From Saccostrea cucullata (taxonomy: Eukaryota), in the NCBI RefSeq assembly GCF_032062105.1, contig NW_026938805.1, forward strand, positions 310,001 to 374,000: 64,000 bases of DNA. The letters are read 5' to 3'. How positions within the stretch are numbered: position 1 is the first letter of the stretch; each line of letters starts with the position of its first letter. Shown piece by piece: positions 16,701 through 19,700 of this stretch. Made by a program: the position numbers and the translations under genes. The notes below the pieces were generated by a model that was not told where the DNA came from, did no database searches, and saw only the letters and a list, made by a program, of their open reading frames with translations.

Positions 16701-19700
16701 AATGCAAGATAACCAGCATGAACACGGCTTGCCATTCTAGGTCGATACCTGTGACAATAAAGCAATCATGTGTAACGAATGCAAAGAGTATATCTTGGTG
16801 TTGATGTATCGTAGATAATGATATCAAAAATGGCGTATGCCTATTTACAAGTCTTGTTCAGCTTTAAGATAATTTTCTGTCAATGTAATCATGAGTTGAC
16901 TAGCTGAGTCACCTGGAATGTTTTCAGTGGACAATATGTTGGGGAAGGAAGGTCAAGGAGTGTACATATTAATGTCGGGGTTGGACATTGAAAGGACTCT
17001 GGGTTCAGCAGGCCCTGTGGGGTGAGCCTCATTTTCTATTTATAGATAGAGCCTGTACATATCCAGAAGGTAGGGTGTACATACTCAGATATTACTGTTT
17101 TATTAGTCATTTCTGGTTCAGTGGAGAACAAACTAGGTGCAGAAAACAAGAAAACAAAAGGTGTCTACATTATAATGTCTGGTTTGGATATTGAACTATT
17201 CTGTTTAGGAATGTGGACAGGCTTTTGCATACGTCCATAAATATAGAATGAGCTATTATGGCAACAGGGCATATTGGGTGAGGATTCAACAACAGGAGAA
17301 TATTTATCTCTGCTAGCTATCTTATTTGCTTGAATTTTAGAAAGATTCCTGTAGATTTCTGTAATAAAGCAATTCAAAGAACCTAGACGAAAAAAGAAAT
17401 GTCTGAAAATGATGATATGAAAAAGAAATGAGAAAAATAATTTCCCTTTTGCTGCTTATGATTTTTTACTTCATTTGTAAGAAATTTGAAATATTTAGGG
17501 TATTAATTACCTCAGTTTATCTAGAACCGTCTCCATTTCTAACTGTACCACCAAAAAAACACAGTCACTCGACAAGAAAACACTGGTCCTTCATCTCATC
17601 ATGGGCAACTTATAACTGACACTCCTTTCCTTTATCTTGTGCACTGAGATCATTCCCTGATACTGGCTCATAACTGATTCTTAGACAGTTTGAGTGTGAT
17701 AAAAATAAAAAATAAAAACAACACTTTGACAAATTTATTGACAAATTTTTTAAAGAAAATACATTTGTTATGCAAAGTTATTATCATTTTTTACTGGATA
17801 TACATGTGGCATATGCTTGATAAATTTCCACATTTATTTCAAACAAGTTGACATTTTTTTTGGGGGGGGGGTGGGGGAGGAGGGTTATAATTTGTCTGTG
17901 TATAACAATCATTATCAAATATTTTTCCAAGCATCTAGAAAGAAAAGGATGCAGACAGCAGTATATGTTTTAACACAAAAATCACTAATTTTAGAGCCAA
18001 TGTAGCAAGGATTTTTATTAAATTTGCAGTGCCCAATATCTTTATATTATCCTTACAGAAAATCATATTTAATTTCCAAAATTATTCATGCTGTCACAAA
18101 CTTTGATCCTGTTTGAGAATTGGTTATTAGCCAGTAGAACTAGTTATATCCTTCTGCTTTCCTTCTTAAGCTGAGAATATGTTGGGAGAAAAGAATAAAG
18201 GAGTGTATGTCCTGATGAGTGGCCTGGATATAGAGCGATTAGTTTTAGCTGCAGGACCAGTCGGGTAGGTACACAGACTTACAAAATCCTTAGTGGAAAG
18301 AAAAGTGGGGGTAAATGTGAATTGAAAACTGTCATAGGTCAGGTCAGATTTGAACACCGAATTCCTAAAGGAGGTAAACAAGTAAGCAATCATCACTAAA
18401 ACAATATACATGTACAAGTAATTGCAATTGAAAAAAAAATTACACATTACATATATATAATTACTGAATTTTCTACTTTTTAAAGGCCCAGCATGAAATT
18501 GTTGGAGCCTTACAGGAATCACATTGTCTATCTGTGTACATCCATCTCTGTCTGTCTATCTTTAACTTTTCACATTTTTACTTCTTCTCAAGAACCACAA
18601 GGGCTAATTTTAACCAAAGGAGGCACAAAACATTCTTTGGTAAATAAGATTCTAAATTATATTTTCATATAAAGGGCCTAACCTCTTTCTATGGGGAAAT
18701 AATCGAGAAAAGGTCAAAGTAGGGTAGTGTTATTTGAAAAAACTCATCTCTAGAAACATGAGACTGAAAATGGCTTGTACTTGAAATTGTTCAATTTAAC
18801 CTCCTAAGTGTAGGATGAGGCCACCATGTTTAAATTTTTTGAGAGAGTTTTGTAAAAAAAATTCTCAAAAAACACACAGAACCACTCATTTGCAAACATT
18901 TCCTACTTGTATGGATTATTTTTATGTGTTTGTGAACACCGATGCCCCTGAAGGGCAGCTTATGGCAAGGGTTGAAGTTTCTCAAATGCAAGTCAAACTA
19001 TAAGGTCAAGGTCAGAAGGTCAAAATTGTTGGTATCCAAAGTAAGGTCTTGTAACAAGGAATATACCAGTGAAATATGAAAGCCTCAGTTCTAAGTGGCC
19101 AAGGTTTAAAGTTTTTGAAAATTGGGTCAAACTTGAAGATCAAGGTCAAACATAAAAAAAATTATTTATACCCATTGAAAGGTCTTTTCATCATGAACAC
19201 ACTTGTGAAGTATGAAAGCCCAGCACGAACTATTCAAAAGTGATAGTCAAGGTTAAAGTTTGATAATTTTTTGTAAAAGTGGGTCAAACTCCAAGGTGAA
19301 GGTGTCAAATCTGGTGGTATCCAAAGAAAGGGCTTATCACAATGAATACACCAGTGAAATATGAAACCCAAAGCCCACCCACTCAAAAGTTATGGGTCAT
19401 TATAAATTTTTTGCAGACGGAAAGACAGATGGACAGGGCAAAAACTACATGTTGATTATGGGAGCATAATAAGCATGTTCTTTTACAATTAAATCAGAAG
19501 TGGTTTATTCTTGTAATAATTTTAAGATAAATTTCAGGATAATGCAAGCATGCTGTGATGTTGCTTTTGCATACGCTCACCAAAGAGAAGCTTTTGGGGA
19601 GAAGATTGGAAAATTTCAGGTAAATACTGAGTAATTCATCATTTAAATACTGTAAATCACTTTTTATTCACGAGAACTTTATTTTCGCATAATTACGCAA

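Follow-up and report, generated by a model that had tools for sequence, protein, structure and literature searches.

The window analyzed here is a stretch of 64,000 nt of Saccostrea cucullata DNA, and all coordinates below are positions in it. On its plus strand it carries a 12-exon gene for isovaleryl-CoA dehydrogenase (IVD), whose blocks match S. cucullata RefSeq proteins (IVD accession no. XP_062589764.1 and XP_062589765.1) at 92 to 100%, with 67% for one intron-spanning block. Exon 8 of this gene is present in triplicate, as tandem copies A, B, and C in the same phase, with a broken copy B between intact copies A and C (Table 1). The 8A and 8C segments are identical to those of the S. cucullata X2 and X1 isoforms, respectively. 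Exon 8B lies beyond a 100-nt intron, has cag immediately before it and gtgagg immediately after it as acceptor and donor, and exceeds A or C by 62 nt. Its local DNA scores were 71.6 against 8A and 67.6 against 8C, with exon bounds off by 1 to 2 nt in this comparison, versus maxima of 52.8 and 55.2 for random window stretches (up to 2,000 each); its protein score was 78, versus a maximum of 31 in 60 shuffles. The initial annotation of this DNA had proposed a third exon homolog 100 nt past 8A that keeps both splice sites and that returns to exactly 94 nt once its lesions are removed. Both proposals hold for the segment from 17122 to 17277: minus the two extra pieces described below, 8B is 94 nt long.

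Table 1. Features of the IVD exon-8 cluster (positions in the 64,000-nt window)
Feature	Position	Strand	Remarks
IVD exon 7	16086..16182	+	ends in phase 1
Exon 8A, intact	16928..17021	+	94 nt; Gly at the human L290 position; RefSeq X2 form
Exon 8B, broken third copy	17122..17277	+	156 nt now (94 + 9 + 53), ancestrally 94 nt; AG acceptor and GTGAG donor kept; ortholog in O. edulis X3
9-nt gain, in frame	17148..17156	+	A-rich stretch with an 8-nt unit repeated; placement approximate
Left copy of likely 9-nt target-site duplication	17188..17196	+	final base is the C that starts the Arg codon following the catalytic Glu codon (17193-17195)
Left arm of 82-nt palindromic MITE, right arm missing	17197..17240	+	42/50 identical to a genome copy, E = 4.9e-6
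First in-frame stop (TAA) when 8B follows exon 7	17238..17240	+	from the 7-B-9 translation
Right copy of likely target-site duplication	17241..17249	+	7/9 identical to the left copy; ends in the T of the apparent TGA
Exon 8C, intact	18171..18264	+	94 nt; canonical Leu form; RefSeq X1 form; main form in the RNA examined (of a relative)
IVD exon 9	19538..19619	+	starts in phase 2

No fourth exon-8 remnant scored above shuffles in four intron stretches, and a genome search with 8C recovered only A, B, C, and one weak match (L018, G000:C18790:312719-312808, minus strand), which belongs to an exon of a different acyl-CoA dehydrogenase-like gene. Just upstream of 8A, a 450-nt element with 27-nt inverted ends (16418 to 16867) attracts many unrelated reads and is likely another MITE; common repeats at 18480 to 18603, 18950 to 19450, and 19647 to 19698 in introns 8 and 9 drew most of the mapped reads.

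The shorter of the two pieces gained by 8B had been described as a 9-nt slippage duplication; the net gain of 9 nt stands, but the repeated unit, GAAAACAA, is 8 nt long. The longer, 53-nt piece can be placed in two ways: at 17196 to 17248, leaving TGA at the Arg codon, or at 17197 to 17249, leaving CGA. A match to a MITE begins precisely at 17197, with the left end of the element, and covers its left arm only. As this end fixes the insert at 17197, TGA is not an independent nonsense lesion, and since the preceding 9 nt recur at 17241 to 17249, the element would have entered the Arg codon after its first base. Judged by this alignment, the left half of an 82-nt palindromic MITE and a likely duplicate of the target site together make up the 53-nt insert, and the apparent TGA is a change in the second target copy, not a third lesion. 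The separate CGA-to-TGA lesion of the earlier reading vanishes with this placement; of the 53-nt insertion that it had set directly after the catalytic Glu codon, the length is retained, but the start moves to 17197, within the Arg codon. The MITE is the only frame-breaking lesion in 8B, the 9-nt gain being in frame. Its fragment also provides a cryptic acceptor at 17209 (pyrimidines and then AG), use of which would shorten the exon to 69 nt and introduce a stop. As an alternative source of the insert we considered a copy of exon 9, but the 13-nt match at 19563 to 19575 has an E value of 0.11 in the window, and the MITE fits better.

The 53-nt piece matches one other place in the genome, a hairpin repeat. 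This repeat has at least 84 matches from the 40 scored of 344 candidates and folds as a near-perfect hairpin of -72 kcal/mol. All four stand-alone copies are 82-nt palindromes with exact target duplications of 9 to 10 nt; in four copies embedded in a longer repeat, the target duplication is 0 to 1 nt. The family is thus short, noncoding, built of inverted repeats, present in many copies, and accompanied by target-site duplication. It resembles MITEs with 9- to 10-nt target duplications, which we take to be Mutator-like, in its 82-nt palindromic and noncoding form, its many copies, and its duplication length, and the 8B copy differs from these in retaining only the left arm. The same hairpin also occurs within a 2.3-kb repeat (L003-L008; e.g., L004:707-3099), whose copies are 93 to 97% alike and have no open stretch of more than 102 codons.

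The initial annotation had further suggested that the ancestral locus carried three alternative exons, that relatives might still use the third, and that an intact ortholog should be sought among them. One was found in Ostrea edulis, so that the lack of any intact ortholog, named there as part of what would refute the idea, does not apply. The species' RefSeq IVD isoforms X1 (accession no. XP_048761926.2), X2 (XP_048761928.2), and X3 (XP_048761927.2) represent the C, A, and B forms, respectively, and differ only in exon 8. With its gains dropped, the window 8B is identical to the X3 segment at 25 of 32 residues, compared with 11 to 14 differences from the other oyster exon-8 peptides. In a tree of 44 rows and 32 columns, window 8B and O. 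edulis B are sisters (support 83/77, not starred), with end branches of 0 for O. edulis B and 0.32 for window 8B, so that all change falls on the window branch; Magallana-type B does not join them, and a 32-column tree is too weak for dating the three exon classes. By these comparisons, we identify 8B as the ortholog of the X3 segment, which O. edulis likely still uses, as far as an automatic RefSeq model tells.

Read-through ORFs from other oysters extend this picture. An O. edulis-type ORF extends into intron sequence whose translation resembles the window's (GFHNKK versus GFNNRR). Searches with the A region also recovered Magallana-type ORFs. Their A segment is that of X2 of M. gigas and M. 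angulata, and they continue across a short intron, of about 56 nt by inference versus 100 nt in the window, into an open third copy at the same place. Judging from the window, these read-through ORFs appear to read TGA as Trp; the B segment itself has no Trp. Searching with the Magallana-type B segment led back to O. edulis isoform X3. B is open in 42 of 48 Magallana-type ORFs and frameshifted in the other 6 (five of which share a deletion); in 2 more, the catalytic Glu is changed to Gln. The SGLD motif of B carries a Gly-to-Asp change in two of the three O. edulis-type ORFs. These counts are of distinct sequences taken from incomplete listings of clusters (15 of 55 for one of them) and are not allele frequencies. 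Given the null-looking Magallana alleles and the O. edulis-type SGLD change, B is perhaps weakly constrained in all oysters, and the sequences suggest that it is being lost more than once. The RefSeq clusters of S. cucullata and S. echinata, with two members listed for each, hold A and C forms only; the B form is likewise absent from all 11 members of the oyster X2 cluster and from the full-length Magallana and Crassostrea matches listed. When the O. edulis-type ORF was searched against 1.84 billion representatives, none of the 143 stretches examined had fewer than 9/32 differences from window 8B. The O. edulis isoforms and the open Magallana-type copies thus support the idea of three alternative exons: the oyster ancestor likely had three swappable versions of the floor of the enzyme's pocket, one of which the lineage of the window has lost.

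The decay of 8B can be gauged in several ways. Between the window and O. edulis, copy A has no differences in its 32 residues, C has 3, and B has 7; outside exon 8, 24 of 361 residues of the protein differ. The excess in B (Fisher P = 0.008 against the rest of the protein; P = 0.014 against 3/64 in A and C together) is a weaker sign of decay than it looks, since B varies by 8 to 11 residues between the Ostrea and Magallana types even where it is open. Four of the seven changes (positions 4, 15, 26, and 30) are absent from all 128 distinct exon-8 peptides taken from full-length proteins, and O. edulis B has none of these four. The peptide rebuilt from 8B, earlier presented as a third distinct pocket sequence, is for this reason not a working pocket but in part a product of decay, and O. 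edulis X3 is closer to the working version. The MITE arm and its nearest copy differ at 5 of 42 bases, and the two target-site copies differ at 2 of 9 positions. Together with the seven residue changes over an estimated 65 or so replaceable sites, these make three rough clocks, which agree on about 0.11 to 0.12 changes per site since the exon died. With 11 to 12% drift, the loss can hardly be called recent, as had been supposed; it appears old relative to polymorphism and would postdate the split from Ostrea.

We compared the possible splice forms by their reading frames. The 7-A-9 and 7-C-9 combinations are open, and 7-B-9 runs into the TAA at 17238; inclusion of any two exon-8 copies, in all three pairings, gives a premature stop. 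The cluster has several properties of mutually exclusive exons, namely, neighboring homologous copies of 94 nt (B with its gains dropped) that share their phases. Each of A and C alone yields an open transcript; window B does not, but the B of O. edulis X3 does. Exon 8B in the window is likely a former member of such a cluster. Exclusion is explained by the frame clash and perhaps also by the short A-B spacing, both among the mechanisms named in the available part of a treatment of mutually exclusive exons (PMC5740500). No shared docking site near all three exon-8 copies emerged from a search for RNA pairing. A candidate docking site, a 14-bp pairing of 17105 to 17118 with 19492 to 19505, was set aside as being at chance level (7 such stems observed versus 4.7 in 60 shuffles). 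An Rfam search gave nothing below an E value of 1. Elsewhere in the cluster, 17665 to 17688 can pair with 18109 to 18134 in a stem of -27.7 kcal/mol, with 19 unbroken bp (four of them G-U) and 4 further pairs. This stem closes 36 nt before the 8C acceptor and is single copy in a genome search; stems of equal strength arose in 6 of 60 shuffles, and it is a possible splicing element.

The RNA consulted comes from a close relative with fixed differences; three raw runs and one contig set were mapped at 80% likeness, at low depth and with NMD active, and none of the runs listed shares more than 0.12 of the stretch's words. Across the three runs, junction reads from exon 7 to A numbered 1, 1, and 8 (total, 10), those from 7 to C numbered 9, 14, and 11 (34), and those from C to 9 numbered 17, 13, and 23 (53). 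Among the 15 joints listed, of 58 in all, none touches B and none is A-9 or A-C; depth over B is at most 0.31. By these counts C is the main form, A is minor, and B is unseen, with the caveats that the RNA is from another species, is of low depth, and comes from cells with active NMD. One contig of the relative joins exon 7 to A and reads through the A donor to 17118, with 0 differences over 194 nt (16925 to 17118), from which the A-B intron may be constrained or may be retained in part of the A transcripts. In the same relative, exons 7, 8C, and 9 show two to three listed differences each.

We consider it highly probable that 8B is a pseudoexon broken by a MITE, the remnant of a third mutually exclusive exon whose intact ortholog persists in O. 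edulis. A MITE would have entered the Arg codon beside the catalytic Glu, duplicating 9 nt of target, and would then have lost its right arm. The exon would meanwhile have drifted, acquiring the in-frame 9-nt gain, changes at otherwise fixed residues, and the C-to-T change in the second target copy. The exon's death is likely due to the MITE, though slackened selection may have preceded the insertion. The survival of both splice sites of 8B invites a different reading, already raised in the initial annotation, in which 8B works as a poison exon whose inclusion sends IVD mRNA to NMD and so tunes the enzyme level. Inclusion would indeed introduce a stop, and every B-containing combination tested terminates well upstream of the later junctions; the unbroken identity of the relative's contig over 8A and the A-B intron also fits. 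Yet the relative's listed joints, with 44 reads into A or C, include none to B, even if NMD would hide some. The kept AG and GT need no selection, since at the present drift they would both survive by chance with a probability of 0.41 to 0.63. The stop, moreover, derives from the transposon fragment and is not conserved, the Ostrea exon and most Magallana-type exons being open. We therefore give this regulatory role little credence.

It is also conceivable that B was never useful in any oyster, being an old duplicate spliced by leakage, with O. edulis X3 as a low-level by-product. The null-looking alleles in 8 of 48 Magallana-type ORFs, the motif change in two of three O. edulis-type ORFs, and the missing B form in the X2 cluster and among the listed full-length matches all lean that way. 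Against them stand an open B of 32 codons with Glu-Arg kept in two genera, the absence of the window copy's four unique changes from O. edulis B, and the recurrence of Val at the floor position in 9 of 143 exon-8-like stretches, which together make a wholly useless B improbable. That only this haplotype or assembly carries the lesions, with intact B alleles retained in the species, seems to us scarcely credible. Only one haplotype was examined here, and Magallana-type B alleles do segregate for lesions, but a lost MITE arm, at least 12% drift, two differences in 9 between target copies, and four unique residue changes imply many steps and so disfavor a single new allele; the closest of the 143 stretches in the representative search are no nearer than 9/32. 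We thus retain the reading of 8B as a MITE-broken remnant of a third exclusive exon.

What the three copies would do can be considered from the residues that they encode. By alignment, human M280, D284, E286, R287, and L290 all fall within exon 8. In the available part of a study of human IVD, E286 is the base, M280, D284, and R287 contact CoA, and L290 forms with L127 a bottleneck that excludes chains of C7 and longer, with Val in the place of L290 in the medium-chain ACADM (PMC12369846). The catalytic Glu and the counterparts of M280, D284, and R287 are present in A, C, and O. edulis B. The residue at the L290 position, in contrast, varies by copy: 8C has Leu, 8A-type exons across lophotrochozoans have Gly, and oyster B has Val or Ala. 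Of the 128 exon-8 peptides, 106 carry Leu here, 18 Gly, 2 Ala, 1 Ile, and 1 Val. Gly or Ala at this position marks second IVD isoforms of oysters, Mytilus, scallops, Ruditapes, Mya, Dreissena, Haliotis, Tubulanus, Lingula, and Watersipora. Twelve such second isoforms come from groups other than oysters, namely, mussels, clams, scallops, abalone, a nemertean, a brachiopod, and bryozoans. Since the Leu of L290 is present only in C, the A and B forms may not qualify as IVDs on the basis of their substrates. By analogy with the human enzyme, exon choice would set the depth of the pocket, and we infer that the acyl-CoAs accepted by the A and B forms would be longer or bulkier than those accepted by C. 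A broader reading, which we offer tentatively and rate as somewhat short of probable, is that IVD exon 8 is an ancient lophotrochozoan substrate switch controlled by splicing. It would choose between a Leu-floor enzyme of the leucine pathway, a Gly-floor enzyme with a deep pocket (from bryozoans and brachiopods to bivalves), and a Val-floor, medium-chain-like enzyme; oysters would be losing the Val form in parallel, through a MITE here and through segregating nulls in Magallana, with Ostrea keeping it.

Tandem mutually exclusive active-site exons and their lineage-specific loss are already known. The oyster RefSeq IVD isoforms concern the same gene and the same exon cluster as the window, but they are automatic models without functional comment, and neither of the two S. 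cucullata members listed represents the dead copy. As far as the available parts of the sources go, the nearest parallel is coq-2, in which exons 6a and 6e form an equal-length, homologous, mutually exclusive pair that swaps residues of the enzyme core and changes its substrate, with examples in molluscs and annelids (PMC7434440). There, the enzyme is a different one, the exons are two, and the effect is experimentally shown; for IVD there are three copies, one of them dead, known from sequence. Tandem duplication, frame incompatibility, short spacing, and lineage-specific loss of such exons are described for human, mammal, and Drosophila clusters, and the available text of that source holds no IVD or mollusc case and no transposon as a cause of loss (PMC5740500). 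Oyster AOX, with a duplicated exon 10 (PMC5589949), and ACOX1, with a duplicated exon (PMC8373072), likewise show, in the parts available, duplicated exons near functional sites of mollusc redox enzymes; the AOX pair is terminal, and neither is described there with a third, dead copy, unlike IVD. Among the literature matches listed, no paper treats alternative IVD exons in invertebrates; the matches mostly leave out subscription journals, and supplements with oyster splicing lists could include IVD. The proposed IVD pocket-floor switch is probably undescribed.

Taken by itself, the dead 8B is an ordinary pseudoexon, yet it is a well-documented one, for which the killer, the point of insertion, and a living ortholog can all be named. 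It amounts to a natural knockout in a putative three-way switch at the one residue singled out as the chain-length gate in the human IVD structure. The O. edulis isoforms, differing solely in exon 8, are suited to comparing whether splicing alters which substrate a core mitochondrial enzyme uses, as happens for coq-2, and the oyster genera that keep B, are losing it, or have lost it offer a ready comparison for the role of the B form.
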